This document shows positions 36,001 to 63,000 of a stretch of DNA of 64,000 nucleotides, piece by piece (position 1 is the first letter of the stretch; every line of letters begins with the position of its first letter). This stretch comes from an uncultured Planctomycetales bacterium (GTDB taxonomy: Bacteria; Omnitrophota; Gorgyraeia; Zapsychrales; JANLHA01), in the NCBI GenBank assembly GCA_964374105.1, contig CAYJXI010000001.1:71743-135742 (forward strand), read 5' to 3'. The notes beneath the pieces were generated by a model that ran no database searches, was not told the origin of the DNA, and saw only the letters and a program-made list of their open reading frames with translations. The position numbers were made by a program, and so were the translations under genes.

Positions 36001-39000
36001 TTTTCTCCGCAATTTTTTATTCTGCTATCTTCTTTTGTTTCAAGTCTATCATCGGCTTTAAATGTTGTCAACCCTTCGATTTCACTCCCCGCCGATTCGT
36101 CCCGCAGAAGTGCTGCGGGCCGGGCTGGGGAGCGGCGCCTCTTCTTTAAAGGGTTGGGCGCCATCGAATGGGTCAACTGGAGTGAGGAAGGAAAAGAAGG
36201 TGATAGTCACCTTCAAGATGGACATCGGCAAGATCCAAAATCAACATTGTCTGCCTTTGACCCATGGACCTTGTTTATGATTGGTGCTGCGGTGGGGATG
36301 GCTGTGATCGTTGGCGTATGGCAGGTAAGGAAATGGAGAAGGTCCTGGACTTCTCAAAAGCGCATTGAATTGATAGAAGAGTTTATCAAGCGATATCCGG
36401 ATAAAAATATTTTAGGTGTGGTGATTTTTGGAAGTGTGGCCTCTGGGAAGGCTACTTTAAAGAGCGACTTAGATTTTATGCTCATCGTGCAAAAAGGCGA
36501 GTCACTGCTAGCCTTTAACAATCAAGAATCTGAGTTTATTGATCAGTTAGGTCAACAATTTGATTTTATTGAACATCCTTCGGTCGGCAAGCTGATGCTC
36601 GAATCTTCCTTAGATACTAACCCCTATCAGGCCTTTGATGCGCAAATTGCTTTATTTTTTGTTCCGCCGCATCTGGTAGGAATCGAGGTTTTTGGCGCCA
36701 GACAACCGGGCCATCCTTTCATTGATCAATGGATTGTGGTAGCCAGGACCCCTGAATTAGAACAAAATTTGACGGCATTGATTAAAGAACGAATGAAAAT
36801 AGTGGTGAGTCGAACTGAAAAGAAAGAAGAAGACAGCCACCGCCTCGCTAGAGCCGAGGGCGAGGAAGACCAACTCTTTGGACTTAACCTAAGTGAAGAG
36901 AACCAGACTAAACTGGCAGAATTGTTAGAACACGCCTTGGAGAGCAAAAATAAGAGAGAAAAAGAGAAAGCCATAAGGCTCTTAAAGAAATTTTTATGGC
37001 GACAAGCCTTAAAAGAGGAAGATGAAAGGACCCTAACTCTCCTTAAACGGCAACCCAAAGACGTATTTGTTAATCAGCATGAACAGGTGCTGGCGGTTGA
37101 AAACGGTCAGTTGCTCTTAAAGAATCGTAAGGAAACACTTAAGTACAGTCAGATATTGCTTGATGTCACCAAGAAGGCCGATCGGGCCTATCATCGAAGC
37201 TTAAGGTCAGTCTTGATAAGAGGCATAAGGAAAATGATAAGTTCGGTTGAAGCCACAGCCACGACGAATGCTTTCCCAAGAACTGTTACGATACATTGGA
37301 CCAAGGATATGATAATGCTGCCTGGCTTTGATCTTGTTGAGCGAGCTTATAAACAGAGTATCAAAGCTGCCGCAGAAGTGCACTTTGAACATAATTTAAG
37401 ACAGATCCAGAAATTGCTTAAAGGCCGAGGCAGAGGTGTCCTGGCGATGGCCCTTCGAGAAGGCTCCCCGGCCAGCGAATCACCAAAGCCGGGGCGGGCA
37501 GGACAAGCAGAGGAGAATAATGGCGAACCTGCTCAAGAAGAAAAGATTAAAGAAGAGATTAGGGATATTATCTTGGAAAAGATCGGCAAGAGTCCATTTA
37601 AGAAATTTAGTGAACGAGCCCGTCAAAAGATTTTGACCGCCCTGGTTGAATCTATCTGGCGCGTATTTTCAAAAGAGTTGGGGGAAAGAAAGGAAGTGAG
37701 CCAGGCGCTTGAAAGGGCTGTTGGTCAGGGATTGAGGGGAGCGGTAACGATAGAGAGAAATCAGTTGAACGCCTTAGTCAGTAAATTGGTGAAATTGGAG
37801 GATAGAATTAACAAAACCAGTAGAAAAGAAGAATGGGCAAACCAAGTCGCAATTTCCTTGGATTGGTTTACTCATGTCATGCAAGAGTACGTGGATAAGA
37901 TTCCGGAATTTAGCAATCTGTGGGAGACCCTAAATGCCCTGATCAAGATTCTGGTACGCGATTCCAACAAATATGTACGGGAAGCGGAAGATGATGAGGC
38001 CAAAAAGGAATACCATATCCGCAGGTTGCGTGTTGAGATCGCTACCGTGAGTTTGCGGATTTATCACGATGTGCCTTGGATGCAAGGTCCTCCAGACAGG
38101 GTGAAGGCGACGGTGGAAAAATTCAATAAATACATACTGAATTATTATCCCTGGACCGAGTATGAGCAGAGCCAGGAATATCTTACTTCCATTAAACACA
38201 TGATGGAAGGGTTAGTGTATGTTTATCCGGCTTGGAGAGAGCGGCTGGACATGTCCAAATGGGAGGAAATTAAGGTCAAAGTACACCTTCCTGTTTCCTT
38301 GCGAAAGGCGGTTAAGGGCAAGAAAGAATTTATTGAAATCAGCGGAGCCATCGATGTGAAAGGGGTCTTTGAAAAATTATTTGACGAAGCACCGGCTTTG
38401 TATGGCGAGTTATTTAAGCGGGGTACTCGACGCAAATTTATCCATATCTTTAAGAACAAAGAAGAGTTACCGGAAAAATTCGAGCAGTACAGTGCCTTTG
38501 GAATCGAGGTGAATGATGAGATTTATATCTATACAGGTGGAGCCGGCCCGGTGAGACCAGCAACCAACGAAAGTCAAAACAGAGGAGGAAACCAAGGTAA
38601 CGCTGAGCTTAAGAAGGGACATCCAGGAAATAAGAAAGGACCCAAAGATGCCTCCGCTCAAGGGAAAGATCGAAAGACGATTATCAAAGAAGTAAGCGAG
38701 TTGGGTGGGATTAAGGCGATTATCCAAAACTTCGGCAGCTTGATTATTCATGAAGACGTGATGAGGACTTATGGCATCAGCCAAGAAATCACGGATCAAT
38801 TAGCCGACAATGTTTTCTTCGTCCGCGGGCCGCCATCAATTGGGGTGGCCAATCATATCGAAGGGAAAACGATCTACATTATTATTCCTGTCAGCAAGGG
38901 GACTGTCCCCTCTGGGGACAGTCCCCTTGCTGCCCTTGCTGCAAGCCGTCAAGACATCCGTCATGAGATCCGCGCGGTGATTTATCCTTGGTTACCTCAT

Positions 39001-42000
39001 CAAATCAATTTCCTCATTGATCAGATTCAATTTTTAATCTCAAAGATAATAAGACCGCTCAAAGGAACATTCAACCTCTTCCCACCGTGGCGGGACTGGT
39101 TGAGTGAAATTTCCCATCATTTAAGAGCGGTCTTGAATTTAAAGCAAGGGTTGCTGCCTGTCTCGTCGTTGTTTAGGGCGGGATCCATTTTCCAAACGAT
39201 GAGGCAGAAAGTGTTTGCCATCCAACCGTGGCTGGTGGTGAGCAAATTGCCTTCCTGGGCAGCAGCCCTTGGCAATAATCAAGAACACGCCATGTTTATG
39301 AACCGAGGCGGCCGCATGCCGCTCTTGCAGGAATTCTACAACCGACGCGAATCCGCGGTGATTCAGGCACCAAAGATCCATTGGTTGCCGTATCGCTTAA
39401 GGGTTCTATTAGGGTATATCATTGGTCAGGCGCTAACGCCGATGCGGTATGAATCCGGGGTGATCGCCGGTATCATTCTCATCTTCGGCATCATTTATCC
39501 TTTAAGTATGCCGCATGTCTTTGATTTCACAACCGTGGTTTCGATGTCTATGCCATTCTGGATAACTTTGGCGGTAGGCAAAATCCTTTGGCATCTTTTC
39601 CATATGATTACTCCAGAACAATTGCAAGGAGAATTGAATGAGGACGATACCGTTTGGATTAAAATCGGCAAGGCCTTTTATTTATTGCATACCAAAGAGA
39701 CTTGGGAAGCTTGGAAGAAAGTTATCAGCGGCGATTTACTTCTGATCACCGGCTTACAATTCCTCATGCTGGGATTATTTAAATGGTTTTTGGATCCAAC
39801 CGATGTGTACTTCTTCATCAGTCTTATTTTAGGTCTGTTGGTGCCGCATTTTGTCGTGGATCTTATTGTAACACCTTTGACCGGTTGGCTGATTCTCTTC
39901 AGAAAGGTTGAGGAGATCTCATCTGAAGAGGAAAAAGAAAAATTCTATCAGCAGATGAGTCGATACTTCAAAAGAATTGATCAGCACAGGTTAGTGAGGT
40001 TGTTAAGATCTAAAGACCAAAAGGTTAATCGAACCGCCATGAGGGTCATGGAATATATGGTTGGGGAGGTTCTTTGGCCATTCAGTCAAATCTTGGCGAA
40101 TTGGATAGAGGAACATCCCGATTTAAGAATTGAATTTGATCATCGAGGGATAATTGAATTCCAGGGAGTGGATTTGAATTTGGCCAATCTGGATATTATT
40201 TCGTTAATCAAGGTCTTAAGAGGATATGGATACGATTTAATTGGCAAAGTCACCGTGACTGGATATGAAATTGAGGAGGCCATCAAGTCGGATAAAAAGG
40301 CTCTGCAGGCCGTGGTTGAGAAAATTTTGAAACATATCGGTATTTTAACAAAGGGTGATTCACATAAACAAACACATCACAAAGAAGGAGATGTTAAAGA
40401 GCATCCCATCCGTCCATCCGCCATGTACCAGGCTGCCAAAGATTATGCTTATCGCTTAAAATACCGGGGATATGATGAGCCATACATCCCCGCCGGATTT
40501 GAGAAGTTGGGTGATATCCTCTTAAGGGTTGCCGTCTACGAATATTTAAAGAAGTCGGGTAAGATCAATGGACCGCCGGATTTAAGTCAGAAGTCAGATG
40601 TCATAAGTCAAAGGTCAACTGCGCGTGAGCAAGTTGAGCAGGTTATTGAGGACTACAAGCGCAGTGAGCCCGACAAACTCAAAGAATTCAAAGAAACCGA
40701 GATTACAACTTCGCGGACCTGGGACATCGGTAGAAACCGCCAGATCAGAAATATCTTAAAGAAACTCGATTACCCGCAGCATCTCATTGACTGGACTATT
40801 CAACATATTGATCTTCATGAAAAATCACCCACAGAATCCAAGGCCATTTCTCGACAAGCCAGGCAATTGAGACTCGAGTACCGCGCTACTTTAGGTGACT
40901 TTATCATCGCCTTAACCGACTGGAATTTTAGAATCTTTGCCTTAAGCTACGAACGAAAGTTAAACGCCAATCCACAACCTATCCTAGAAAAACTTGAACA
41001 ACTGCTCGTTGAGATCAAAGCTGTTCTACCGAGATTTAGAGATTTACAAATCCCGGTGGATCTTATTGAGCGAGTTGAGGCCATCTTTGAATTGTTAGAG
41101 AAGACCAAGGAAGGGGGTGTGCGTACACCCAACGAACCGGCGGCGAATATGATCCTCACCGCCACAATAGAAAAAGCCACGCAACAGAAAGAATCAATTC
41201 TTAGAGCCCGTTTGCGTCAGGAGAAGAATATAGCGCGGGTGAAGAAAGATGGAAAATATTTCGTGCGCGGCCAGCGCTATGAAACGATTGCCAAGGGATT
41301 AAGTCCGGTCTTAACGTATGGGAATCTTCTCTATTCAAGCCTCTTTGATGCCTTTGGGGCAGTAGATCATATGATTGATACCGAGCTTGATGAAGTCCTC
41401 TGGATTAAGGATTTCATTGGCCTATTGAATGAATTTAAACGAATGACTGTCGATGATAAACAACGGATTGAACAAATGATCGAGGAACGTCTTAGCAAAT
41501 TAAGCAGGGCCCTCGTTGAGGAAAAGAAACTTGCCCGTATCGTTCTTGAGCATACAAAGACCCTCCTCAATTTGGATGTCAACCTCTTAAAACAAATCAT
41601 CGGGCTCTTTAATGTCACGATTCGTCTATTGCAATTGAGGATCGAAGAAAGCCAGGCGATAGTAAGAGGCTTAAAAAATGCCCGCTTGAATCGATTAAGA
41701 AAAGAGGTCAACGAAAGAAATGCCGCCCTTAAGACAAGGGCCTTTAAGATCCTTCATTCTCTTCAATACGGCCATTATCGGTTGCCAAAGAAGATCCTTG
41801 AAGAAGATCTCCTCAATCCCAAACACGAGGCTTATCTCGATCCTAACGATCCGGAATTTACCCCGTTGAGCTCTGTCTTAAAGCATAAGATTTTACCCCT
41901 CTTAAGGAAAATCTATAAAACGAAGGAAGATCGCCAAACTATTCAAGAGGTCTTAGAATTCTTCAAGAACAAACTTCTTGTTTCCATGATCATCAACCGC

Positions 42001-45000: not shown

Positions 45001-48000
45001 ACAACCGGTTTCACGGCGGCGGGTCTACGAGCAGCAGCTTATGAAGCGGGAGCTCAACAAGTGTTTGCTTTGGCTTATGGAAAGTCCTTAAAGGGCAGGG
45101 CTGACCCTGAACTGGTTGGGCCGGAAATTTCTATGGAAATGACAACAGCTGAGATTCCTGAATTGTTGGGAACCCCATATGATAACGAGACCATCCAGCT
45201 TTTTGTGACAGGCGGGAGCTTTGTGAATTGTGTGTCCCGTACCATATCTCATGCGACACTTCATTCACTGCTTACTCTTAATAAGCCTCTTCGCGTGATC
45301 GTCTTTGAACCAGCTGTCTCTCCTTGGGGCAAACACGATTACGATGACTACATAAGCGCCTTTGTTCGAATAAATTCGATTCAATTTGCTGGCCTAATGC
45401 CATTAGATACAAAAGTAACATTAGACGGACATGTTATGGTTGATCAAAGACCGGTTGTTTACCCAGGTTATTCCGTACTTATTGAGATTTACACAACCAA
45501 AAAGCAATTCAAGGATAAATACCTTTATGAGAGCCGTGAACTTGATCTAAAAGGAGTTCAGAAAAAAAGATTCATCGATGTTCTTACCGAAAAACTAAAT
45601 TTAAAACAAGATGTAGCGCAACAAATACTGGAGCAGTTATTAGAGAAGAGTTCATTTCTGGCAGGTTGGGAGGGACAAGGTGAAGTCTTGTTCTTTGTCA
45701 TCGGCCTTTTAAAGATTTTGACCCTACCAGGTCTTGCCCAAAGCTTACAGGGGAACGAGGAGTTGACTAAAGAATTGGTAGATTCTCTTGGGTACTCTGT
45801 CAATCACCTTTTTAAAGAGAGGCTAGTCATTGCACGAAGAGCATTTATTTATACCGTGGAATTGTTAATGAGTTCTGCCGTGAGTAGGCTTCTAAAAGAT
45901 AAGAATGACGTAGAAGGCGTTATGGAAAGTATTCAATTTGTGTCTGGAAGAGCCAAAAATTTTCAAGAAAGGATTGTTGTTATTAATCGAGTTTTGAATT
46001 CGGGAAAACTAGCTCAAGAAATTACAGATTTAGATAATCTCCGTAGATATATAAAAGAAGTTTCTGAAGAGGTTTTAAAGAAGGCTCAAGTTGATCATCG
46101 TGGTTTTCTGGATGTTGAAAAGACGACCAGGACGATTCTAGAAGAGCTTAGTGGAAACAATTTTGGATTTCAAGAAGAGGGTGATTCTTACCGCAACATC
46201 ACCTCCTCCGCCTTTAAGGCCTATTTAGATCAGCATCGAGCAGAATTATTAAAGCAATTAGGCGAAGAAGGTGTGAGAAGATTAGAACGATATTTTGAAG
46301 CTTTAAGGATTCATGAAGAATTGACCAGCGCTAAAGGTTTGATTCGCGGGCAGCCTGCCCTGAGCGGAGTCGAAGGGCCATTCGAGGGAGCGGAAGTTGC
46401 CTCATTCGTCGCACCGAATCAGACCGGCCTCAATAAAGCCTTACGCGCCTCACTCGATCAACCTTGGGAATTATCCCCCGAAGCCATTCAAGTTTTGATC
46501 GACCAAGGATTTACTAAAGAAGAGATTACTGAATACCTCGCCTTCCTCAAAGAACATGAAGGGGAGCATCAAAGACTTTATAAGGAAAATCCTAACCATT
46601 CCGAAGACAGAATACTTGGAATTCAAGTAGACAACATAAGCCATGTGTCCTCACGTACGATAAAAACGCAAGCGGTTAGTTTGGGCGATAACCAAACTTC
46701 CACGCAATTTGTCAGCCGGAATTTCATTCAGAATATTTTTGATAATTTTGTACATCTTTTCTTTGGAGAGAAGATGGGTGCGCAAAACGATGATGCCGCA
46801 AGACTTTTGGGGAGGATAATGCAGGATGTTGCTAAAGTCGAGATCACGGGTAATCAAGACACGGCCTTCACGACGGGCAATGGCGAATATTTCCTCATCT
46901 TTAAGGGGGGTCTTGGAAATATCACGGACATCGACCACATCATAATCTTGGCTTTGAAGTTCATAAAGGAAAGAACGAGGGATATCCGCATCCAAAATGA
47001 GTTTGATCATTATCGAGTTGAAGATTTAAGGGGAATTTCTTCTTCCTTAGCCAGAAGGGCAGCAAACAGAAGCGATGCCTTGATGTCTTTATCGGACAGG
47101 GGAGGATATTCGGCTTTGATTTCTTCGGGGGTCATACCTAAAGAGAGAGCTTCTAAGACCACATATACCGGGGTGCGTGTTCCTTTAATACAAGGTTTAC
47201 CATGGTGGATATTAGGAGAAGTGACAATTCGTTCAAGCAGACTATTGATTTTAATCATATCAATACCTCCAACAGTTAAATTCAGTATAGTTACCTCTCG
47301 AGATAATGTCAACGAGAAAGTCCGCAACATCACCGCTGAGGCGCTGGAGAAATTTATCAATGCTAGAAATAACAGTAGCGAGCCGTTAACTGAAACCGTC
47401 ACCCAGCGGCTGCAGATGTTCGTGGCGATGTTGAGAATGCTGCAGGCAGAAACCGGTGGTGAACCTGTTGCGTACTACAATACTGCGACCGACCAAATCA
47501 TCTGGAATCTCACCGAAGAACAAATCCGCACCATCCTCAGTACCAAGAATAAAGAAGAAAACATCACCGTACTCATTGATTTCATTCGTAAACACGAAAA
47601 GAGACATCAACAACTATCTCGAAAGAAGATTAAACATTCCGAAGATAATATCTTTGAATATCAAATTAAAAAATGGAAAGCATCGGCTCCCAATAAGAAA
47701 TCAATCCGCGAGTTGTTGTTTAGCAAGCGACAGGGCGCTCCTCAGGGATTGCCAAAGGTTTTTGCCTTTAGATTCGAAAGGAATCAAAGGGTTAGGAGAA
47801 TTTCTGTTGCCAAAGACTTGCAACAAAGATTTTTCTCAGAAGCGTTTTTGGTAGAGACAGATGAACTTGGCGCCACTGTTATTGGAGATATTGAGCAGTG
47901 GGGTGGATTTAGAGAAGATCGGTGGAGACATAGTCATCTCATGGAGTTAGAGGATGAGGATATTGTCGAGATGGCCTGCAGTGATTGTGGCGCCATGATT

Positions 48001-51000
48001 ATCCACAATGCCCAGACAAAAGAAACCTTTTTTGCCCATTCTTTGGGATACGAATCATTTGAAACATGGCAACTTAGTCTTCAAGATGCTAAGAAGCGCT
48101 TTGCTGAGCAGGAAGATCAAGTTATCGTTTATGTTGGGGCGAATAATTTAGGATTTACTCTAGGAGATTATGATGATCATGGAGATTATAAGATCAATCT
48201 TGATAAAACACTAAAAACAATCAATTCAGCGTTAGAAGAAAGACAAAGGCTGATCAATCAAGCAATCGAGTTAGGCTACCGAGTCGTCCAAACCTTCCCG
48301 TATTATATTGGGATTTCATTAGATCATTATTTCAGCCCTCAACGCGGAATCCTCATCATTAGGGTAGATAAAACAAATTTTCCAGATTTTGTCAAAAGGA
48401 AAATGCCTAATCGACAATATTTGGATTTATTGAAGAAATTAACCAAAGAAAGAAAAGGCAGTGCTTATTTTGATGAAGGTGAAAACAGCGGGTTCCCGCG
48501 CCGCAACATCACCGCTGAGGCGCTGGAGAAATTTATCAATGCTAGAAATAACAGTAGCGAGCCGTTAACTGAAACCGTCACCCAGCGGCTGCAGATGTTC
48601 GTGGCGATGTTGCGTATATTAGAGGGGACAACTAACGGTGAACAAGTTGCGTATTATAACCCCGCCACCGACCAAATCGTCTGGAACTTGATCGAAAAAG
48701 ACATCCGTACGATCTTAAGCGCTCACCGTTTTACCACTGAAGAAATCACTGTCCTTATTGCTTTTATCCGCGAGCACGAAGAACATCATAAAAAATTTAA
48801 AAGGCGAATTTCTCATACAGAAGCTGATATCTTTGAAGATCAAATCAAACGAATAGCCCAGGAAACAAAATATTCTTTGCCTAAGCGAAAGGTTTATACT
48901 CGTAAGGTTATCAAACGCGGCGAACCTTGGCTTGATATCATTGAAAACATTTTCAAAATGCAACCATCCTTGCTGCAAAATCGAGCATTGGTCGTACTAT
49001 TTATGCTAAGCCTATTTGACCGATATTGGCGGTCTAAATCAGGGTCTATCGCGATATCTGCTGTCCGAGATTACATACCAGACTTTAATCTATTGCCTTC
49101 ACCTAAGTCAAGGAGACAAATCATTAACGAAATTAGCGGAATGTGGAGCCGTTATCAATTGGTGCATTGGCATGGGGCCTTTGAATTCTGGTTATACGTG
49201 GTTTCCATGGTGTCTATACTAAGACCAAATGTGCTCTTAAAAAGGCTTAAAGATTTCTTTTTGATATTTGGACCTTATTGGGATTTGATAGCCGTGTTGG
49301 TGAATGTATTGCATCTACGCGCCCTGCCGGGCCATGGTTTAGAAGAAGGGAAACTCATTGATCTTGGAATTATCAACTCCGCACTGTTACGCATTGTTGA
49401 ATACTTTATTGAAAATTTACAAAGTCGCACGATGGAACCACAGAGAGACGGCCACAAGATCAAGATCCCAGAACGAGCTGTTTATCTCTGGGCTATTGCC
49501 TCTGCTTTGGATCCCATTATATATTCCGACAGCGAAATAAGGCCAGAAACCCTTAAACAGTTAGCTCTTCTCAACCAAAAATGGAATGGCAAAGTGGAAC
49601 TCTTGATTGAAGAAATTTTAGGGACAAATTGGTTGAACTACAACCTCAAGAGTCCGGAGGTGGCCTATGATTCAATTCTTGGATATGATGATGAACCGAT
49701 TCCGTTCATTTTCGCCATCAAAGATACAAGGGTTCTTGAACAATGGGTCTTACCTGACGAAAAGCATGATGTTCTTGGTGATCCTTTGCTTTGGTTGATT
49801 ATGGTTAAGAATGATCAAGAGGAGATAACGTCATTTTTCAAGGGACAGGATTTTTATAGGACACAGGAAGAAAGGAATCGCTTGCGAGGGAAGAGAATGT
49901 CTCTTGAAAAGAGAAGAAAATTATTTAAAAGGACATTGCGGGAAGATTTAAGATTTTTGAAAGAGCAGGAGAAGGGACGGCAAGAACAAAAAGCCAAGTT
50001 ACACAACCTCCTTGATCAATTTGAACATCTTCATGAGACTGTCAAAAAAGAGGGGAGTCGAATTGTTGATTATGAGGATAAGCGGTTTGTGATCGTGGTT
50101 TATAAAGAATATGAGAGCACTTCTCAATCTATACCTCGTTTAACAACGAGAACTGTTTTAGGGACAGCCGAATGTTTTGATTGTCAAGGGGTGCTGGGAG
50201 TTGGCTTTGTCTCAAGGAAGGCCAAGACAGGCTTTGTGCTCCATCAATTTATGAGATTAGAAGAGTACTTCCCGGATTTTGATTTAAAGATTCGAAACGA
50301 TCATCTTAGATACGAGTGGGAAGAGCTGATGGCCAAGATGAGGGGTGCTCAGGAAATCATCATTGTGTCTTCTTATCGATCAGAACGAGAAGAGTCTGTC
50401 TTAGAAATTGTTAAGAATTTGCCAGAAGCTCCTCATGTGCGCGGTTTATTAATTAAACGAGATGAATATGTTGATAACGAATCGACCATGATGGCCATCG
50501 CTCAGGGAATGGCAATTCGTACCCATAATCTTCCCAGAAATTATCGTAGAGAGGTTATCTTAACCTGGGATGAGGTGAGAGAATTACTGAGAGGTGATTT
50601 TACTTGGATTACTATGGAAGAATTAGAAAGAAGGAAAGGTGGGGACAGCAGTAGTTTTGACAAACCTCAGCCCCCACCGAAGCACCGCAACATCACCGCC
50701 GATGCTTTGGCGGAGTTTATTGCAAACAATATCGGTCGAATAAGTAAAAGAGTCGCAAATCGTTTGAAACGATTTGTCGAGATGCTGCGTATCTTAGAGG
50801 AGCACGTCAAAGAAAATTGGAAGATTCTGACACCACCGGCCGTTGCTTATTATGACACGACCAATGACCAGATTATCTGGAACAGGAATCTATCTAAAGA
50901 GGATATCCTCATCACCCTTAAAACTCACCGTTTTACAACAAAAGAAGTCGTCGAGCTTATCATCTTTATCCGCGAGCACGAAAAGCTCCATCGGCTACTC

Positions 51001-54000
51001 TACAAAAGAAATCCCGCTCACAGCGAAGAGGATGTCTTCCAAAAGCAAATTAAATTGTGGAAAGAAAAAGTTGTTACTCCCACTTTATCCATCATCGATT
51101 TGGTCGGGGCAGATCCTGTTCCAGAAACAATCGAGCAGACCTTTAATTTAGAAGAGACAGAGAAGCTTTTTGCGGCCTTGGATGAAGAGCGAAAGATTGA
51201 TTTACGGAAAAGTAAACCTCACATTCTATTGATTGGAGCAGGCGCTGAAGATGTAAGATTCATCGCCCAACGTTATCCGAAGGGTCAGATGGCCGTGGTC
51301 AGTTTAGGGATAGGACATCTTGTGAAGATCAAAGAGACCTTTGAACAAGATGCCCACGTCAATAGACGGCTCAAACTTTTTTATGCCGATGCCGCCCATT
51401 TGAACCGCAAAAAGTTCCCCAATCAATCATTTGATTTTATTTATATCAAGGGAATTGATCCGACCGCCTTCGGTGATTTGAAAGAAGGTGACACAATTGT
51501 TCAAGGAATTGCCGAGGTGGCCATGCGCCTCATAGGGCCTGGCGGCATCATCTATCATCAGTATTTCCCGCATTTCCGGGTTCGGATATTCTATTCGGCT
51601 TCTGCACATTACATCACGGGACAGGATTTGAGAGAAATTGAAATCCCATCAAAATGGGAATCTCAATGGGTCGTATTTTTAAGAAAGGCACAACAACGAC
51701 CTCGGCAAGAAAAGCGCCATATTGTCGATGCCCATGAGCCTCAAACAACGCCTAAACTGACTCTCGAAGAAGAACTTAAGCTTTTGAGACGTATTGTTTA
51801 TGAAAGCCGGGCGTATATTTTTGAGTTGTTCCGTTTCCATAAGTGGCCGGTTCCGGAACCATTAGCGCAGGTAACATTAGGCGGGTGTTGTCAGGATGCC
51901 GCTCAGGATATTCTGTCCGTTGTTGAACTGCTAAAGAAAGAAGACAGGAGAGGTCTCTCAGCAAAAATATACCAAGCTCATACCTTGTTCTCAAAAGGAG
52001 TTCGAACAACAAATATTCTTGCCCATGTCTTTGCCGTTGTTTCTTTTGAAGATTCCAAACAGCATTATCTGGTTGATACGACCTTTAATCAGCACATGGT
52101 CGATAATTGGGAGGAGCTTGGCTTACGCGATACCTTAGAGATTGCTGCTGATTTGCGGGGTGTGGATTTTGTTTTTGAACTTATTCACGATGGCTATAGT
52201 CCGCTAACCGATGAAAATTCCAACGTCTATGGCAATATCCTGCGAAGATCTGATTTACAAGAATTTTCAACCAAAGACATTGTTGAGGGGCCAATGGCCC
52301 CCTTGACAGAACTTGACGTTGAACGGGAAGGGTTTTATGTCGGTGATGAGTCAGTCAAAGAGAAGATCGATAGACAAATCAGAAAATTCTTAATCTCGCT
52401 TGCCCCAAGATTTAAACGGCACGGGTTTGATGTAGAAAGAAAAGGTGACAGTCACCATCAAAAGGGAGAGGCACCCAAGGATGCCCGCCAAGCCTTTGGC
52501 TGGAAACCCTACCGCGCCCAACTCAAATCCGAATTCGGCCAAGAAGGAATCCGTCACCTCAAACGCGAAGACCGCTGGATCGTGTTTGCGATTGTGTTGT
52601 ATTGGTTTATCCGTGCGGTCACGCTGGGCTTCTGGGCACCACCAGTGCCTACGGGCTTTAAGTTCTTCCAAATCGCCTCACCGACCGCCGAACATCCGGC
52701 CATGCGGTTTATTTCTGCCAAGTATCAGCAATCCATCCGCACACATGAACAAGATCATCCAGAAGAAGAATTCGAAGCCTACCGAAATGCATTGAAGGAA
52801 CATCAATCTTCACTTCGAATTCGATATTTATCACGATCGACAATAACAAGAGATTTAGACAGCTCAGAGGCAGGAACTTCTTTGAGGACTCTCACTAGGA
52901 CGGTATGGACAGCCTCCATGGCTCCCAATGTATCCAAACGAGGTCGCAGGAGAATAACTCCACAATGGGATTTGGTAGGATATAAATTGAGATTGCCAAA
53001 ATCAAGATCGGTAGTAATGATGGTTGCCTTCTCTTTATTGGCAATATTGATTACTGTGCCGTTTGTTGCGGAAGCCTTCCCCAACTCTTGGATTGTCACA
53101 ACGGAAAATCCACTTTGGCGCAGTATCTTCGCGGTTTGGACGAGTACGCATTCATCAATCAATAACTTCATTTTAGCGGGACTTCAGATTTTCGAAGAAA
53201 TGTACTTCTTCATTGCGGACCAATTGGTTGGCATACGCAATGCAGGCGTAAATATCTTCCGGGGAGAGTTGGGGAAAATAATCTTCGCCAGTGATTTCTT
53301 GGGGAGAGAGACCGGCGCTCAGCAAATCCAGAATTTGCCAGACCATAATGCGATGGCCCTTTATGCATGGCTTGCCGTGGCATATCTTTGGATTTACCGA
53401 AATGCGTTTAAGAAGCTTTTGGGTATCATTCAATTTAATAGTCGGTTTAATCATTTTTTGAATCTCCAAAATAACAATAGAACTGTAGCATCTCCAAAAG
53501 GTCATGTCAAGGAGGCAGAAAGGAAACAATGGTTGGAGGAAATTCATGAAATCCAGCGCCGCGAAGCCTTTGGCTGGGAAGCTTACCGCGCCCAACTCAA
53601 ATCCGAATTCGGCCAAGAAGGAATCCGTCACCTCAAACGCGAAGACCGCTGGATTGTGTTTGCGATTGTGATGTACTGGCTAATTCATGCTATGACGCTC
53701 GGGTTCTGGGGGCCGCCAGCGAAGGTGACAGTCACCAAAGGTGACAGTCACCTTCGCCAATTTGCCCGATGGCAAATTGCCTCACCAGAAGCCGAACATC
53801 CGGCTTTGACGGCGAAGATTTTCGGATTGATTCCCTTAATGCCTGCTAAATACAGACAATCCATCAGACAACACGAGTTTTATCATATTTACCGAACCGA
53901 TGAATATGGTGTTTATCGAGATCAGTTGATTTGGGTACTGGATGTTTTAAGTCCGTCTCACCAATTGGCGCAAAAGATCAATGAAAGTTTAAACGGGCAA

Positions 54001-57000
54001 CCTTTAGAGGTCTACGCTGATCCTTTGATCATTAACGACCAAAAGGTTTTCTATACAACTACGGAAGGTACTAGGTCCCAGGCAACGGGTAGCGAGAGGA
54101 CATTGCCTCGTGTTTTAAGGATTGGACCGGATATTTTTGTCCTCATCAACGAATACGGACCTCAGCCGGAAAGAATCACCTCGCAAATAAAAGGAATGAA
54201 ACAAAGATTAGGTAAGTTATACACCAAGAACACCGGGCGTATTCACTTTGTCCCGTATTCATTTTATAGTCGAGGGGATATCGAACAGACCGGTATCCCA
54301 TTGAGTCGAGACGCGGTTGTCGCGGTTGCCTCAATCGGTACGTTTATCAAAGAGAACGATACCGGTTTCGGGTTGGATTTAGGAACCGGTGAGGATGCGC
54401 TCTTAGGAAAGGTCATGATGAAACGCGGCCTTAAAGTTGTCTTGGTAGAAAAAGAGGCAGATTTGATTCCAAGAATCAGGACATATTTGGCCCATGAGGC
54501 CTCCCAAGAAAGTCAATGGGATTGGAACAAAGAATCCCACGAGTGGCAAAGAGGCGAGAGAGGTGATGGCGATTATGTCCTCCTTCAGGGGGATCTTTCC
54601 GATCAAGATTTCTTAAACAAACTCATGGAACATCCTTGGGTCAAACAAGCGAAGATCCTCACCGCTAATATCGGACCTTGGGGTTTCTATGGCAGTAAGG
54701 ACAAAAGCCAAATTCATCCCAATGAGGCTTCTGTTGGGATGGCGGTTGGCTTGCCTAACGTTAGATTCTTTATTAACAGCGGATACTATTTATCTTACCA
54801 AAGATCCTTCGAAGAAGGGCATCACGGGCAAGTTCTAAGCGCTAATAAACAATTCTTCAAAGACCAAGGATTTGAAGTAGATGTTTTGAAGATGAGTTCA
54901 AAATACAGTTCTGCCGCAACCTTAATAGCTTACCGGCAGCATAACAAGGGGACACTCAAAACAGGATTCCTTGGGCCTTATGAGGTGCTTGAGCCGGTGT
55001 CTTATGATCTTAAAGAAAACAAATTATCCGGGCAATTGAGAAACACCTCGACCAAAGAGGTAGTTGATCTGGCCTATACAACATATATTGAACGAGCCCC
55101 GCCGGCGGCGATTCGGGAAATGCTTATCGATGTGAAGAGGCTTGCTAGAAATCGGATCGTTACAAAAATTATTAGAAGATATTTAAGAAGTTTTGCTGGC
55201 CAAACCTTTATTATTGAACACCCTGCCGACATCACTTTAAGTTTTGCTAAAAAGAATCTCGTTGCGATTTCTCGGTATCTGATGAATACCCCCCTCGCTG
55301 TCTTCCACGAGATTGCACATGCCGTTCTCATCCGATCGGAAAATGAAAAACTCCTAAGGCAGTTTGATTCCTATTTACAAAAGGAAGCTTCCACTTTGAG
55401 ATTAGTGGAACTGAACAAGACCGGTGATTATCCTACCCTTCCCGACATTATCCATCGATTGATTATTGCCTTACAGAAATTTGCAATGCCTGAACTGAAT
55501 AAACAGCTCATCGGCAAACTCTATTATCTTGAAAAACTTCAAAGAGAACTTAAAGCAACCGATAAAGAAATCATAAGGAATGAATTAGATCATGTGGTGG
55601 TGATGAATAAAGAAAAAGGCATCGTGAGCGCTAACTGGTCAACAACCGAGGCATTCGCTAAAGAAAAGTTACCTAAAGAATATCGATATTTAACGCATAT
55701 TGGGCGATTAGATAAAAAGACAACTGGACTCTTATTATTCGGGAAGAAAGGATTCTTAGGAGTGACCCTGATTAATCCAACCCTTCATCCTGAACATAAG
55801 GTTAAGAAGGTCTATGAAGCGGTTGTTCAAGGCATACCTCAAGAAGAAGATTTACTGCGTTTAAAAGAAGGTATCGTGATTCGGTTTACCAAGATATCCC
55901 AGAAGGGCAAGAAGAGAGATAAGGTTGAGTATCTTGCCAAGGCGGTTGAGGCTAGATTGATTGAAGCTGATAGGAAAACAGCTGGAGTCCAAGTGGTCTT
56001 GACTGAAGGCAAAAACCGCCAAGTCCGTCGGATGCTGGCCAAGATCGGATTCCCTGCCCTTCGACTTAAACGCATTCAAATAGGTGAAGTTAAACTCGGC
56101 GATTTAAAACCTGGCAGAATAAGAAGATTAACCGATGAAGAAAAACAATGGATGTTAGGAGTTTATCGCCAGGGCCTGCGGCACATCTTGAATAAAGAAC
56201 TAAAGCCTTATCAAAGAATGAAAGGGCCGCTACGAACGAAGCTCAGTCACCTTCCGTGGCGGGTGGCGAGCAAAATAAGTCGTGCGTTCGTAGCGGCCTT
56301 GAAGATTATTAGACACTTAAGGAGATTGTTGGGGCATCGAAGCGTTGATTCAGAAGAACAAAAAGATTTGCCGGGATCTCACCAAGAAAAACGTGAGGTC
56401 CTTGGCTGGTGGAGGTATCGAAAAGAGCTTCGTCAAGAATTCGGCTGGCGCGGGATTTGGTATTTGGTGAAGGAAGATTGGAATATCATCCTGGCTTTCA
56501 TCAAGGAGTATGGTTGGATCCGCGGGGCGCCGATGGCGTTCACAACGCCGATCGCCACTCCAACCGCCTATATCCGGGCCTTCTATCGATTACCGCCGAT
56601 GTATCAAAATTCTATCTATGAACATGAAGAAATCCATAGGGAGGTGAAATCCGAATGGGAAGCTTATCAAGGGCAGTTACAGAAGATTCTCTTGGATAGA
56701 AAGATCGGAGATCTCAAGAGGTGGTTTAAGGAATCTTACCAACTGATAAAAGAGTTCTATTCACCTAAAGGAAAACATACGCCCAGCAGTGTAGTAACCA
56801 GTAGAACTGATGTAGAGATCGCAAAAGAATTGGAAGAAGATATTTATAAACAGATTTTTGAAGTGTTGGAAGAGATTAGCCAGCATATAGAGCGAGGGAG
56901 AATACGGCCGGATGTGAGACTGAGGGTATCTGAAAGAGAGGTACCAGGGTATATACCTAAAGATATGGGACGGCCGGTGCGCGCGGCGTTTCTACCAATG

Positions 57001-60000
57001 AAAGGGGATCCTTGGCAAATAGGGCATCTATTTGTGATTCTTAAAGGTATAGCCAGCCGACAGTTTGATAAAGTCATCGTTATGGTCGATAACAGTGATC
57101 CTGTCCGTAAACCCAATTTAAGATCATTAACCATTCGGGAAGCGATCAGCAGGATAATATTAAAGGAGTTAGGATCGCTAGTGCAGTATACGCCGGTTCC
57201 CAAAGAAGAGGAGGCCCTTTTCGCCGCCGATGGAGAAACGGTCTTGTTTAGACTGATTGAATTAAATAAAGATACCCCAATGGAAATAGATTACCTAGTT
57301 GGGTCGGATCATCGGTACTGGGAGATCACCAGGATTCATCCTGAGAGCAAGAAAGAAATTAAGTTGCCTGACACTACCAAGAAACTTTTTGATCATCAAG
57401 ATAGGCACCTGTACGGATATGAACGAGGCAAGAGTCCTAGAGTCAATATTTTGTTTTTTGAACGCATTGGGGAGCTTTTGACAGAAGAGGTGAGGAGAGA
57501 TTTAGAGAATAAATCTGGCATAAGGATAAATAAGATTTTCCATCGAATGGATTTATCATCGACACGGGTCAGGAAAGAAAGGCATTACTGGACGGTTCCC
57601 TGGATGATTTATGAACTTGCGAAAGCATTTAAACTTTGGGGATTTGAGGAACAACCCATTGGGGAAGGACAATCGGAGACTTGGGATCAACAACAAAAGA
57701 ATATAGCTGAGGGTTTAATGAGAATAGTTGAAAGGATGTTGATAAGTATTTTCAAAGATTATGAATCGGTCAAAGAGGAATTTAAGCGTGAATTAAGAAA
57801 AGCTTATGGACCGGCGATGGATATTTTGGACATGGGTATTATGAAGAGATTATTCCAGGCAGCCGATCCCCAGAAATCAAGAATGGCTCCGGAGGTTGTT
57901 ATACAAAGAGAACGACTAGAAGAGATCCGTGAATTGATCTTTGAACGAGGAGAAGAGATCGTCAGAGAGACATTATCAAGCAAGGCATTGGAGCGTCGGG
58001 TTCTGGGCTGGTGGCCGTATCGAAAAGCGCTTCGCCAAGAATTCGGTCTGCGCGGGATTTGGCATTTAATCAAGGAAGATTTCCATATCATCCGCGCCTT
58101 TATTAAGGAATACGGCCTTATTCGGGGAGCGCCAATGGCCTTCACCCAGCCGATTGCCACACCATCCGCCTATAACCTCGCCTTCCGTCATCTAGCCTTA
58201 TCTTATCAGCAATCTATCAACTTCCATGAAAGCGTCCATCGAGAGGGTGAAGATGAATTGAGAGCCTACGCTGAACAGTTAAGAGGGATTCAGAAAATGG
58301 TGTCTGTCCCCATTTCCATTTCTATGTCTCGTAGAGAAATGCTGAAAGTATCTTTAACAGGACTAGGGGCTGCCGCGCTAGCAAGTTGTCTGGGATGTGC
58401 CCTACCGAATTCGCCACAACCGGCATGGCTTACCAGAAATTCCAAAGATTATGTGGTTAAGCCGCTTGACTGGTCAACAATTATTGGTCAGGCAAGGGTG
58501 GTCTTTGTTGGAGAAACTGACCACGATACTCAAGATGATAAATACTTTGTGGCAAGGTCGCTTAAGGAATTAAAAGCCATCGGTATTACTCATCTGGCTT
58601 TGGAAAATTATGAGGCCCATACGCAGAGTCTTATTGATTTGTTCTTGCAAGGCGCAATCACCATGGTCGAGCTGGAAGAGAAGATCAGCAAAGCCCGGCC
58701 GCAAGGTGCCCGGTTGCCCAAGTTGTCGCCAGATTTTAGAGCCATCCTTGAAGCGGCCAAAGAAGCGCAGATAAAAATTATTGCCCTGGATAGCCCCCGA
58801 TATGCGCTGGGGACTGCGGGCGAACGTAATATTAAATGGGCAGGACTGATGCTGCCTGTTCTTAAGGATGACAAGATAAAGATTTTGGTTGTGGATGGAG
58901 CAGATCATTCGATCTACAAATACCGATATCTGAAGAGGCCCGGTGCCAGGATTCAGGATGATATAGGGTTACTTCCGGTTATTTCAGAGTTAATCATGAA
59001 GTATTACCCGGTTGTTGTAACTCAAATAGTCAGCACAGATCAACCTACCTTATGGTATACGAAAACTTTTGTTATCAACGCCATAAACGAAGGGGCTGAT
59101 CATAATGAAAGTGTTAATCTTGAGCAACCGCAGATGATTTACGCTCGTGAGGGTATTATCGATGAAGATAGCGACTACTACATTTATGCCCCTGAAATTT
59201 TATTGAACGATTTAGAGGATAAACTTAAGCAAGAACAGAAACGCCAAGTACTCGGCTGGTGGCCGTATCGAAAACAACTTATCAAAGAATTCGGTCTGCG
59301 CGGGATTTGGCATTTAATCAAGGAAGATTTCCATATCATCCGCGCCTTTATTAAGGAATACGGCCTTATTCGGGGAGCGCCAATGGCCTTCATTAACCCC
59401 ATCGCCTATTTCGATCTCAAGACACAACTGATCCATTATAATCTCGTCTTTCGGCATCTGCCCAAGAACATTAAAGAAACAATCGAAATTCATGAAGATG
59501 CACATATTGATGGTTTGGATGAGTTAGGTGCTTATTGGAAAGAATTATCGGAATTCACTTACCACATTTATCCTCGCTTGCAACGAGCAAAGCGCGCCTA
59601 CAACGTCAAATTACAACAGATATCCTCGAATGAATGGTTGGCGATCAGTTCCAAAGGGATATATCGATATCAATTGATTCAAATTGATGAAAGCAATGTC
59701 AAGAATTACAAAGAGCAAATAATGGGTCTCTTTGAGAATGATTCAGAATGGCTTAAGGAAGATGTCGTGGGTTACTATAAACGCATTCATTATGATGTCA
59801 AAGACCATAACATAGTTGGTTTATTTATAAATAACCGTATGGTTGGAATTTATGATCTCTTGAGTGAAGAATTTGCTTTCCATATGTATGTTAACCCGCA
59901 ATATCGGGGAACAGGTGCTGTTGATGTCTTATTTGAAGATTGGTTGTTACGATTCTTAAAAGGTGATGTTACGAAGCCCGTGACAGGTCAAATTAGGCGT

Positions 60001-63000
60001 AGTCCTAAAAAGAGCAAATTATCTTTTGAGGACGGGACGATTTATGAATTAAAAGATGCATTAGGTATTATTAGCAAGGTCGAAGTCGAATATTTAGGTG
60101 AACGAGGGAAATCTGCCCGCCGCGCCGATGGCGGGGCCCGCCGCGCCTTTGGCTGGTTAAGGTTTGCGTGGAAACTCTACAAAGAATTCAAGCTACACGG
60201 CATCTGGCATCTTCTTAAAGAAGACTTGGCGATCATCCGGGCCTTTATTAAAGAATACGGCCTGATCCGCGGGGCGCCGATGGCACTGAGAGAACCAATC
60301 GCCACACTGGCCGCTTACAATCTTGCCTTCCGGCACTTAAAATTAGAGTATCAACTTTCGATTAATATTCATGAAAATGCGCATCAGGAATGGGAAAATG
60401 AATTGCAAGCTTATCGAGAAGAACTACCGTGGGTTAAGGCAGTGAGGCAGGGTTTAGTTGGTCAAAGCAATCCCTTCCACCGTTATCGACTTAAAGGCAC
60501 TTTTGTCACCCAAACGTTTGATCGCATCGAGGATTTCGATACCGGCCAGTTTACCTTCGCTGTCATAGTCGGCAGCAATACCATCAGCGATATTCTCAGT
60601 CGTGACCGTAGTATTTTCTTTGAACATTATGTAGAGGGCATCAACTTTAGGATCGTAGGTAATGCGCATGAGACCTCCTTATTAGAAATAGTAAACGTAA
60701 ACAGTAACGACAATTATTTTCTTCTCTTCCTCGACAAAAATGGGCCTAACTTGTTTAGTCCTGCAATGCTTGCCATTCCACGTGCTGTTAAAAGGGAAAT
60801 CTTTACGGCATTCCCATTTGTTCAACTGCGACTTCTGCCATGGGATGGTATTAATGACTTCCGCAATCTCCGATTCGTTCGTGCCTCTCATCGTACAACG
60901 CATTTTAGCATGGGCACTCAAAAGGATCGTTCTAGCAATCATGCGTTTGATAGTACAATACCCAAGAAAGAAAGTCAACAGGCATTTCATTTGCGTCATC
61001 AATATCAACGTCGGGTTTTGGGCTGGCGGCCGTATCGAAAAGCGCTTCGCCAAGAACTCGGTCTGCGCGGGATTTGGCATTTAATCAAGGAAGATTTCCA
61101 CATCATCCGCGCCTTTATTAAGGAATACGGCCTGATCCGTGGATCTCCATTAAAGACACTCTATCGAGTGCCTTATGCCATTTGGCTTAGCTTGACTCAA
61201 CCCATCGCTACAGCTATCTCCTATAATGAGGCTTTCCAACATTTACCTCCCCAATACCAATTATCGATAAGATTTCATGAATATGCACACCTGGAAGGAC
61301 AAGATGAATTTGAAGCTTATCAATATGAGTTGCGCTTCATTCTTAAGAGGAGATCATTCTTAGAAAGAGCTTTTATTGAAATCCGAAAGGCTTATATGTT
61401 AATGATCGAGCACTCTCTAGATCGTGGCAGAATTATCCTGGATGGTATTTATTTCACAAACCAAGAAGAGAATCGGGAAGGAGCCGAGAAAGAGACGGAT
61501 TATTTGCGACAACTAGACATGAGGTTTAGAGATTTTTATGAGCATTTATCAGAAACTTCAGAAATCAATAAAGCAGCTGAGCATTTGCTTTCGCAGATTG
61601 ATAAGTCGGAAGGTTTCTTGAGAGATCATCAAACTGATTACTACCTTATTGCAGCAATCATGTTTAAAGAAGTCATTCAATTGTTAACGAGATTGGGGAA
61701 TGATCGTGAGGAGAGTATCGAAGTTGATGCGGCTATTCAGATGATTGGACTTGCTGTGGCTACTATGGATCGTTGGGTTTGGGAGATTAAAGCCGGAAAT
61801 TCAATTCAGTTAATCACTCAAATTGCACCAGATGCAAGGAAAATCAAAGTCAAGAAACAAACTATTATTTATAGCGTTTTAGGTGTGATGATTTATTTGT
61901 TTGCTTCTGTCAAATCTTTTCAGCAAAGGAAGCTTATTGGGAACATTGTCAGCAAGGATGATCAGGAATTGGAACTCAAATTCAAGATTGAACCGGCGCC
62001 GGAGCTGTGGGATTCGAACAAAAGATTGATAGACACAAAAGATTTACTTTCATCGGTTAAAGAAATATTACGAGTTGCGGGGGGATCTTTAGAACAAGAG
62101 GAGGGTGTTTCTACAGATTTTGTCATTCGATTGCCTCTACATAAAGGCGAAAAAGGTGACAGACACCACTTTAAAGTCGCTGTTTTGCCTGATGAAAGCT
62201 TTGAGGTGAGGATGACCGAAGGCGTGTTGGACCGTCAGAATACTCTGATCGCTGAGCAAATCGGCAGCAAGAAGGTGTTCTTCGTGGTGGACGATGGGGT
62301 AGGCAGTGGGACTGTCAGTGAGATTAAGGATTACATCCAGCATCATCGGCTTAAGGCCGAGGTGATGGTGGTCAAAGGCGGAGAACCGGTCAAGGACGGA
62401 TTGTCGCAGGCCCTGCAGGTCATTGACGAAGCAGAAAAATTCGGTATTGACCGCAAGGAAATTATGATTTTTGTCGGTGGAGGAGCGGTATTGGATATGG
62501 CCGGGTTTGCGGCCACTATCTTCCACCGGGGCGTTGAGCATATCCGGATTCCCACGACCCTCCTTTCCCAGATTGATGCCGGGGTGGGTGTTAAAAACGC
62601 GGTGAATTATCTGGGGCAGAAGAATTTCTTAGGTGCCTTCCAGCCGCCCAAGATGGTGATTGTGGATCCTAAGCTTTTGGCAACATTGGATGCCCGTCAA
62701 ATGAGTTCTGGCATGGCTGAGGCAGTGAAGGTGGCGTTGATTAAGAACAGAGAATTGTTTGAAATGATTGAACAGCATTATCAGGATGTCGCTAGGAAAG
62801 ATTTATCCGGCACCAGCCGCATGAAGGACATCATGTGGCTGACCATCGTCGCTCATCTTGAACAGATCTACACCGATCCGTACGAACGAAAGCTGGCTCG
62901 GCCATTGGATTTTGGCCATGAATGGGGACATCGTTTGGAGGTTGTGACCAAACACCGCCTGACCCACGGCGAAGGGGTCTCGATCGGCATGGCGATAGAT

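Follow-up and report, generated by a model that had tools for sequence, protein, structure and literature searches.

A rare family of HExxH modules arrayed between the enzymes of a giant Omnitrophota protein, with a possible role in polyprotein self-processing

A 64,000-nt stretch of contig CAYJXI010000001.1 (assembly GCA_964374105.1, positions 71,743 to 135,742 of the forward strand), from an uncultured Planctomycetales bacterium assigned to the Omnitrophota by GTDB, is part of a giant gene for many enzymes, a type that has been reported from this phylum. Within this stretch, called the window in the following, eleven copies of a small HExxH-bearing module alternate with unrelated payload domains, a single module standing ahead of each payload throughout 15 kb. 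What is new here is this rare mini HExxH domain family and its arrangement as an array in a giant multi-enzyme protein; the idea that such proteins are processed has precedents. Judged from the sequences, self-processing of the giant protein at these modules is the explanation that we tentatively favour.

Eleven HExxH modules in one reading frame

Frame +1 of the window is free of stop codons from nt 1 to 63999, encodes at least 21,333 amino acids (aa) and is open at both ends. It is the sole open stretch of at least 300 aa, an open reading frame (ORF) scan of the window having found none in the other five frames, and GC and purine skew are even along the whole window, as expected with one coding strand. 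By Pfam, the ORF is a mosaic of enzymes from at least 11 distinct families. With its length above 10,000 aa (10 kaa), its many different enzyme Pfams and no dominating repeat, it has the properties by which giants of the Omnitrophota type are recognised.

A preliminary description of the window had reported conserved linker modules alternating with unrelated payloads from about 46 kb onward, with four copies of one linker (family A, with the motif RNIT) and seven of another (family B, with the motif GW). Tiled self-BLAST and hidden Markov model (HMM) searches bear this out, coordinates included: exactly these copies are found between nt 46183 and 61344, all on the forward strand, and neither approach detected additional A or B copies elsewhere in the window. 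Family A consists of A1 (nt 46183-46644, aa 15395-15548, HExxH at nt 46555), the most divergent copy with a 25-aa insertion, A2 (nt 47314-47682, aa 15772-15894, HExxH at nt 47593), A3 (nt 48493-48861, aa 16165-16287, HExxH at nt 48775) and A4 (nt 50677-51066, aa 16893-17022, HExxH at nt 50977). Family B begins with B1 (nt 52477-52806, aa 17493-17602, HExxH at nt 52744), which has a hydrophobic stretch resembling a transmembrane (TM) segment in its N-half, and B2 (nt 53551-53940, aa 17851-17980, HExxH at nt 53872), which contains insertions. It continues with B3 (nt 56383-56691, aa 18795-18897, HExxH at nt 56623), B4 (nt 57985-58293, aa 19329-19431, HExxH at nt 58225), B5 (nt 59233-59559, aa 19745-19853, HExxH at nt 59491), B6 (nt 60130-60438, aa 20044-20146, HExxH at nt 60370) and B7 (nt 61000-61344, aa 20334-20448, HExxH at nt 61276). 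The segments between linkers, 190-815 aa long, have no mutual similarity by self-BLAST.

Each of the eleven linkers carries one HExxH motif, as had been noted. The motif occurs 16 times in the whole ORF, against 1.04 occurrences expected from its composition, and 11 of the 16 lie within linkers. Alignment of the 11 copies confirmed that H-E-x-x-H is conserved, with a distal Glu kept in family B and an H-x-E motif, 9 residues downstream of HExxH, in family A. Further invariant elements of this alignment are R, G-W, K/R-E-D, P-I-A, E and Y in family B, and R-N-I-T, V-A, W and Q in family A. Of the two families, A looks the more classical in its sequence layout, which reads VAYYN-x4-QIIWN, a helix, F-I-x-x-HExxH, 8-9 residues and H-S-E. 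The downstream motif 'E(L/F)xAY' ascribed earlier to the GW copies is present, in a form that the alignment widens to E-[LFWY]-x-[AV]-Y.

Two HExxH sites outside the linkers stand in a hydrophobic context like that of classical zincins, namely IFHELGHLV (aa 8953, nt 26857) and VFHEIAHAVL (aa 18436, nt 55306), the latter upstream of the pseudouridine synthase payload; Pfam recognises a peptidase family in neither of them. A third linker-like pair was noted at nt 29797-30204 and 38611-39063 of the forward strand (aa 9933-10068 and 12871-13021, 50% identical), its first copy immediately upstream of the inositol monophosphatase payload. Its layout, IRG(A/P)P...(V/I)A.Y, resembles that of A and B (IRGPP..GVANY..RHEIRAV).

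Relatives of the modules in other giant proteins

When the seven B cores were run in a full HMMER search against 1.84 billion representative proteins, just 26 matches came up, nearly all within protein fragments of 1-6 kaa, which are fragments of other multi-enzyme giant proteins. Of the 26 domains in the B alignment used below, 7 belong to the window and 19 to other proteins, with 31-71% identity to the reference. Its mean column identity is 30%, and its sole invariant columns are A38, H81, E82, H85 and E91, with I35, I57, A58, I78, A94 and Y95 near-invariant. In support of the preliminary description, the linkers are genuine conserved domains and not spacers. HExxH is kept in 29 of 34 instances; counted from the second His of these 29, position +6 is Glu in 22 and position +3 is Gly in 15, which gives the extended family B motif HExxHxxGxxE..AY, present in linker B4. 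Three of the five remaining instances match the N-half alone (P0016, which ends there at its C-terminus, and P0023 and P0024), and two are degenerate. In P0023 (aa 1327-1380) and P0024 (aa 1006-1059) the N-half (RKFFGW...AYIKKYGLIRP) stands without its HExxH partner, and TM segments come after it. Since the N-half is found alone in these two proteins, the B module may be bipartite, consisting of two separable parts.

In protein fragment P0004, the module stands between an esterase and a ROK domain in the order GH77, esterase, B module, ROK, NUDIX, aminotransferase, guanylate kinase, and A-like and B-like modules occur together in giant fragments P0008 and P0010. A back-translated AFIKEYGLIRG pattern matched three metagenome loci. 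Metagenome locus L005 lies on a 70-kb contig, and its open frame of 4,225 aa encodes DnaJ ... a CheD-like domain, the B module and SecA-DEAD, in this order. In two unrelated loci, L005 (aa 3329-3566) and L003 (aa 170-437), a CheD/NTAN1-like deamidase domain stands immediately before the B module. Word-indexed protein searches gave no match with the seven window B copies or with the A-like alignment, and two short ORFs, with no others, when the 26 B sequences were used. These two are probably pieces of longer genes rather than proteins standing on their own, since same-strand genes on their contigs look fragmented (low coverage, a split ribonucleotide reductase). Degenerate scans found no relatives in GTDB representative genomes or IMG/VR contigs, and tblastn found no match of the module in 50,697 phage records and 72,556 plasmids. 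An exact 50-mer gave no match in GTDB genomes and JGI metagenomes, and the window itself has no marker gene. Family B is a rare domain not described before and, as far as these searches show, confined to such giant proteins. In hhalign, the A and B profiles give a colinear alignment that extends through the HExxH helix (Prob 77%, E 2e-5), so that A and B are probably two branches of one family.

Structure model and putative metal site

An AlphaFold2 (AF2) model of linker B4, built from the 26-sequence B alignment, has a pLDDT of 97.6 and a pTM of 0.88. It consists of a long helix (residues 10-54), a short helix (65-69), helix 72-86 with HExxH, a four-residue turn and helix 91-102. In the model H81, E82 and H85 lie on an alpha-helix, as is the case for the motif in zincins. 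The candidate third ligand, E91, opens the following helix only 6 residues past the second His, with Y95 on the same helix. The zincin core has been described as an N-terminal helix, strands, the HExxH helix and a helix with the Glu (PMC5512222), and the order of elements in the B4 model agrees with it, sheet aside. For family A, the sequence VAYYN..QIIWN suggests a hairpin.

Four of the five invariant columns being H, E, H and E, the module looks like a catalytic metal site and not like a linker without activity. The Glu beside the first His is the general base of zincins and would be needless in a structural site, yet it is invariant. Its retention argues for catalysis and not merely for metal binding, and we consider it the strongest argument for a putative catalytic site. 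Of the zincin-type metal site suggested earlier, the conservation of HExxH and the distal Glu is upheld (26 homologues, down to 31% identity), whereas a fold or profile match was not obtained. Pfam scans of all module copies gave single marginal matches only, including MPTase-PolyVal (E 0.018), DUF3810 (0.017) and DUF922 (0.013), which we take to be zincin-type families; unrelated families among the marginal matches were equally weak. The family B profile found nothing meaningful among PDB sequences. For the family A profile the top PDB match was selecase MJ1213 (4qhf), at a non-significant E=0.5, in an alignment that keeps the strands, HExxH and the downstream His/Glu in the same order. The modules resemble minimal zincins by their motif, their size and the order of their elements; they are putative members of the superfamily, and the modelled B fold may be new.

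Two other assignments of the site were considered and rejected. Membership in the metzincins is contradicted by the form of the motif (HExxHxxGxxE, with Glu and not H/D as third residue), by the presence of Gly in only 15 of 29 instances, by the lack of a Met-turn in the alignment and by the lack of a fold match. For a di-iron or ferritin-like ExxH site, the upstream acidic pair E31/D32 is not conserved outside the window.

Self-processing and its alternatives

The favoured explanation, possible though tentative, is that of a self-processing polyprotein. The modules, 100-130 aa long, would represent two divergent branches (A and B) of an undescribed minimal zinc-peptidase-like domain family. 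Read from the N-terminus, they would share one order of elements, namely a helix, a short region of strands (VAYY..IIWN in family A and PIAT..AF in family B), the HExxH helix, a turn (HExxHxxGxxE in B) and a helix with the third ligand, which would be Glu in B and the His or Glu of H-S-E in A. By metal-dependent hydrolysis of peptide bonds the polyprotein would be cut at or near each module. The sharply conserved start of the module (R-R-x-[LF]-G-W for family B, R-N-I-T for family A), ahead of which lie polar spacers that are not conserved, is a plausible place for the cut, and cutting at module boundaries would release single enzymes. Zinc binding, peptidase activity and cleavage of the junctions, in cis or in trans, are thus what we infer.

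Several observations are in line with such processing. The boundary motif of family B is sharply conserved (R in 23/23, W in 23/23 and G in 21/23 sequences) next to an unconserved polar spacer upstream, and the domain begins abruptly at the invariant Arg. In the B4 model, residue 4 of the boundary strand bridges to the P-I-A region just ahead of the active-site helix, which could represent a substrate-like docking of the boundary. A complete Tat-type (twin-arginine translocation) lipoprotein signal is embedded in the ORF at nt 58324-58389 of the forward strand (aa 19442-19463; MSRREMLK...LASC, read directly from the sequence, with a TAT_signal match at E 0.099). This signal, MSRREMLKVSLTGLGAAALASC, opens the ChaN-like payload 10 aa past linker B4 and more than 19,000 residues into the ORF. 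In known pathways, Tat and lipoprotein export signals are located at the N-terminus, so that the signal after B4 would seem to need a free N-terminus. The start of the payload after B1 (see below) is likewise of a kind that known export pathways use at the N-terminus.

Other observations weigh against self-processing, and concern both the domain and its distribution. The three-stranded beta-sheet that would be expected ahead of the active-site helix is all but missing from the B4 model, in which DSSP finds isolated bridges at residues 4, 58 and 63 only. The structure prediction and fold search that had been proposed as a check gave a confident B model without a match, Foldseek finding neither a zincin nor any other fold in PDB and BFVD. 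Nor was significant sequence, profile or fold similarity to any known zincin found, the links to known peptidases having E-values of 0.013-0.5. Degenerate copies exist in relatives (HESTPH in P0014, HVPAH in P0026, and HESYP), and in the third linker-like pair of the window, which resembles a family C, RHEIRAV corresponds to HExxA, the second His being lost. Relatives mostly have one or two modules per giant fragment with many payloads, and the first 46 kb of the ORF contains many enzyme junctions and no A or B module by HMM search. The modules therefore cannot be a general processing device.

It is tempting to go further and to regard each module as a cis-acting minimal metalloprotease, possibly of a new fold, that would cut its own boundary after the second Arg of R-R-x-[LF]-G-W, or at R-N-I-T. 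The gene, of more than 64 kb, would then be a true polyprotein gene, an 'operon in one reading frame' providing stoichiometric sets of enzymes and freed export signals such as that of the ChaN-like payload, with the N-halves of its modules acting as recombination sites for cassette swapping. We regard this extended version as doubtful.

The alternative that survives best, although we think it unlikely, is that the modules are non-proteolytic organisers, i.e. metal-stabilised helical domains that space, dock or tether to the membrane the enzymes of an intact giant protein, with HExxH..E as a structural or non-peptidase site. The B4 model, nearly all-helical, with a 45-residue helix, no zincin sheet and no fold match, would suit such a role. 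So would the hydrophobic or TM-like N-half of B1, B2 and several homologues, and the N-halves of P0023 and P0024, which lack the HExxH half and precede TM segments; published topology surveys, moreover, treat such giants as membrane-anchored arrays. On the other hand, a purely structural site would not need the motif Glu, which is nevertheless invariant in 26 of 26 domains, the Tat-lipoprotein signal past B4 would be hard to use without a free N-terminus, and the C-half with HExxH..E..AY is kept as protein despite diverged codons.

Rather improbable, in our view, are active mini-metallopeptidases that work in trans on prey or host surfaces or on other proteins of the cell, the modules being payloads themselves. 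The same motif evidence as for self-processing applies, and metallopeptidase (MPTase) domains in conflict systems can be effectors besides releasing peptidases (PMC5512222). Most relatives, moreover, have just one or two copies per fragment. However, neither the strict alternation of modules and payloads over 15 kb nor a conserved boundary motif set against unconserved spacers would be expected of effectors, and a domain of about 100 aa offers no visible specificity or targeting parts.

A further alternative, that the modules matter mainly as DNA, i.e. as homology blocks for intragenic recombination or gene conversion by which payload cassettes are shuffled or inserted, relates to the mosaic identity of the copies. 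The N-halves of B4, B5 and B7 have 84-90% DNA identity (B5 and B7 being 89% and 90% nt-identical to B4), and 33-40 of their 40-44 identical residues share codons. The N-halves of B1 and B2 are 86% identical, and those of A2 and A3 84%, with the first 90 nt 100% identical. The C-halves, which contain HExxH, have a DNA identity of 53-64% and far lower codon sharing, and flanks are at random level. This mosaic indicates recent gene conversion or recombination, limited to the N-halves of subsets of copies; B3, B6, A1 and A4 are not homogenised. In the C-halves, conservation of the protein while codons diverged argues for selection on the protein motif. The recombination modules considered as an alternative in the preliminary description are thus supported as a process by the N-half DNA identity, and not as an account of the metal motif, which is invariant in proteins of distant relatives. 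Whatever the role of the modules, their repeated N-halves serve as substrates of intragenic gene conversion or recombination. An RNA element behind the N-half identity was rejected, with a weak consensus fold (-9.5 kcal/mol over 165 columns), no Rfam match and homogenisation of subsets of copies only. As a selected function of the modules, shuffling at the DNA level appears quite improbable: gene conversion is an expected by-product of repeats and requires no selected function, H/E/H/E is invariant in proteins of unrelated contigs in which DNA homology is long lost, four copies are not homogenised, and neither a consensus RNA structure nor an Rfam match was found.

Least probable is piecewise expression of separate enzymes from internal promoters, ribosome-binding sites or mRNA processing at the linkers, which the sequences ahead of the Tat signal and at the start of the payload after B1 (see below) might suggest, and against which stand zero stop codons in 64 kb, an ATG with a Shine-Dalgarno-like sequence in only 3 linkers, no Met within 60 aa downstream of 5 of the 11 linkers, by which internal translation starts were rejected as a general mechanism, and no conserved RNA structure or Rfam family.

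Self-processing thus remains the preferred explanation, and it bears on the question whether the giant proteins of ultra-small predatory or episymbiotic bacteria, of tens of thousands to 147,000 aa, act as single molecules or are cut; the lack of known cleavage points is said to block its further analysis (bioRxiv 10.1101/2023.11.21.568195). The modules are concrete candidates for such points: each measures about 100 aa, contains an invariant H-E-x-x-H...E site and has a sharp boundary motif. Eleven junctions are arrayed in the window by nature, and an intact Tat-lipoprotein signal comes after one of them. Active modules would rank with the smallest metallopeptidases known and would show that bacteria can express genes by way of polyprotein processing; inactive ones would still form a new and very rare domain family marking domain borders in otherwise unannotatable giants. 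With the modules, whether and where giant proteins are cut becomes a question directly testable by experiment.

Payloads and other features of the giant frame

The enzymes upstream of the module array are SNF2 helicase, a PrmA-like methyltransferase, uridine kinase/PRK, inositol monophosphatase, RmlD, a full transketolase and a Pol-beta nucleotidyltransferase; pseudouridine synthase, ChaN and dehydroquinate (DHQ) synthase domains add to the enzyme Pfams of the ORF. A crude Kyte-Doolittle scan gave 18 TM-like hydrophobic peaks along the ORF.

The payloads named in the preliminary description fared unevenly. All those detected lie, like the linkers, on the forward strand. The pseudouridine synthase, at nt 55579-56136 (aa 18527-18712), is RluE-like (Pfam 6e-17, PDB 1e-14), and the ChaN-like payload, at nt 58489-58818 (aa 19497-19606), is confirmed as a domain of the ChaN/Tiki superfamily (Cofac_haem_bdg, 3e-12). 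A dehydroquinate-synthase-like enzyme is complete at nt 62164-63261 (aa 20722-21087). Its fold is as proposed, but it is closer to sugar-phosphate cyclases than to AroB, with PDB matches to ValA/EEVS (4p53, 3e-56) and DDGS (5tpr, 2e-50) ahead of AroB-type enzymes at E 1e-40 or weaker. The NadD-like payload (nt 57007-57648) is represented by a weak NadD/CoaD-like nucleotidyltransferase signal alone (E 0.007-0.04, far under curated cut-offs), and the GNAT acetyltransferase (nt 59797-59967) likewise by a weak signal (E 0.0039, 17.6 bits against a Pfam cut-off of 23.6 bits). Methyltransferases, also listed among the payloads, were not detected at 46-61 kb by Pfam, NCBIfam or PDB sequence searches, the only clear methyltransferase of the ORF being the PrmA-like domain upstream of the array (aa 8617-8720); at the level of the fold, methyltransferases may still occur at 46-54 kb. 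The same three kinds of search leave all five payloads of the region from aa 15549 to 17850 without a match.

The Tat signal after B4 is preceded by an in-frame ATG at nt 58297, with a Shine-Dalgarno-like AAGAGGG 9 nt before it; its sequence gives the impression that an entire gene, ribosome-binding site included, was taken up here in frame. The payload after B1 opens (nt 52918-53067, forward strand) with Met, a basic stretch (KRGRRR) and the strongest hydrophobic segment of the region (aa 17671-17689), and this start resembles an N-terminal signal anchor embedded in the polyprotein.

Repeats of other kinds were also noted on the forward strand. Big diverged repeats make up the N-terminal 3,200 aa (nt 49-9600), as stretches of several hundred residues with 25-42% identity and with related pieces at aa 5920-6724 (about nt 17760-20170); their sole Pfam match is DUF2608 (aa 3350-3449). 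The uridine-kinase/PRK-like region (nt 27982-29760) is duplicated internally (aa 9328-9598 and 9648-9920, 28% identity). Between the transketolase and Pol-beta nucleotidyltransferase payloads, a short repeat ..KSTLSAF[E/D]P followed by a TM helix occurs at nt 35194-35337 and 36187-36333 (aa 11732-11779 and 12063-12111, 47% identical). The motif (K/E)GDSH is found four times against 0.075 expected, mainly in polar spacers (aa 12067, 13452, 17482 and 17914; nt 36199, 40354, 52444 and 53740), with one copy 14 aa before linker B1 and another within the insertion of B2, and the related GGDS(S/P) stands upstream of A4 and of a TM module. It may be a candidate short linear or cleavage motif. Two minus-strand ORFs nested in the giant frame (nt 29686-30183 and 53173-53631) are presumably spurious.

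Comparison with known systems

The preliminary description had presented self-processing as novel, which was overstated in view of precedents in polyvalent proteins (PMC5512222) and in Omnitrophota giants (bioRxiv 10.1101/2023.11.21.568195). The nearest concept is that of the polyvalent proteins of phages and conjugative elements, in which zincin-like MPTases are often interspersed among disparate enzymes and are predicted to release them by autoproteolysis (Iyer et al. 2017, PMC5512222). The modules share with them the placement of small HExxH and distal-Glu domains between unrelated enzymes of one very long polypeptide, and the element order N-terminal helix, strands, HExxH helix, Glu helix. 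The similarity in sequence is limited to one B copy with the marginal match to MPTase-PolyVal (PF18818) given above, with no significant sequence or fold similarity. Unlike in polyvalent MPTases, the beta-sheet of B is nearly absent and the Glu follows just 6 residues past the second His, and unlike in polyvalent proteins the host is a chromosomal-type ORF that exceeds 21,000 aa and encodes housekeeping-like enzymes, and not an early-injected protein of a phage or plasmid. Membership in the phage and plasmid polyvalent proteins was rejected, given payloads of the housekeeping type and no module in phage, plasmid or viral-contig collections.

In size and layout the modules come closest to the minigluzincins (selecase MJ1213 [4qhf], proabylysin and projannalysin), which at about 110 aa are the smallest known active metallopeptidases and share the order strand-turn-strand, helix, HExxH helix and downstream His/Glu. 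Minigluzincins differ as free-standing archaeal and bacterial proteins, not repeated internal units, and the selecase match has the E-value of 0.5 already mentioned. As to metzincins, with HExxHxxGxx(H/D), family B has the same spacing in HExxHxxGxxE, and its helix ends just ahead of the Gly (residue 88), with the candidate ligand next. It differs in the points by which membership was rejected and, in addition, in being half the size.

MARTX toxins have a single inositol-hexakisphosphate-activated cysteine protease domain and RTX repeats. Like MARTX and polymorphic toxins, the protein studied here is an array of domains in one polypeptide, theirs being effectors freed by a built-in protease. 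Unlike in MARTX, no such protease or RTX domains are found by Pfam, and the payloads look metabolic or housekeeping rather than toxic.

The closest setting is that of the Omnitrophota giants themselves. For their enzyme-rich 'Archaeovorin-type' proteins, cleavage by C39/S8 peptidases at unknown cleavage points has been proposed (West-Roberts et al. 2023, bioRxiv 10.1101/2023.11.21.568195), and a 'multi-enzyme metabolic cluster' class of proteins of at least 10 kaa has been defined (Nielsen & Lui 2026, bioRxiv 10.64898/2026.06.07.730766). Neither paper mentions linker modules, zinc or HExxH, and a full-text literature search for Omnitrophota and HEXXH gave nothing. A SecA-DEAD domain is reported as typical of such giant genes (bioRxiv 10.1101/2023.11.21.568195); by Pfam it is absent from the window, in which SNF2 is present instead. 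Like these giants, the ORF is far longer than 10 kaa, has many different enzyme Pfams along its length and is poorly conserved in sequence, with TM-like segments scattered over it, and L005, a relative by its B module, shares SecA-DEAD with them as well.

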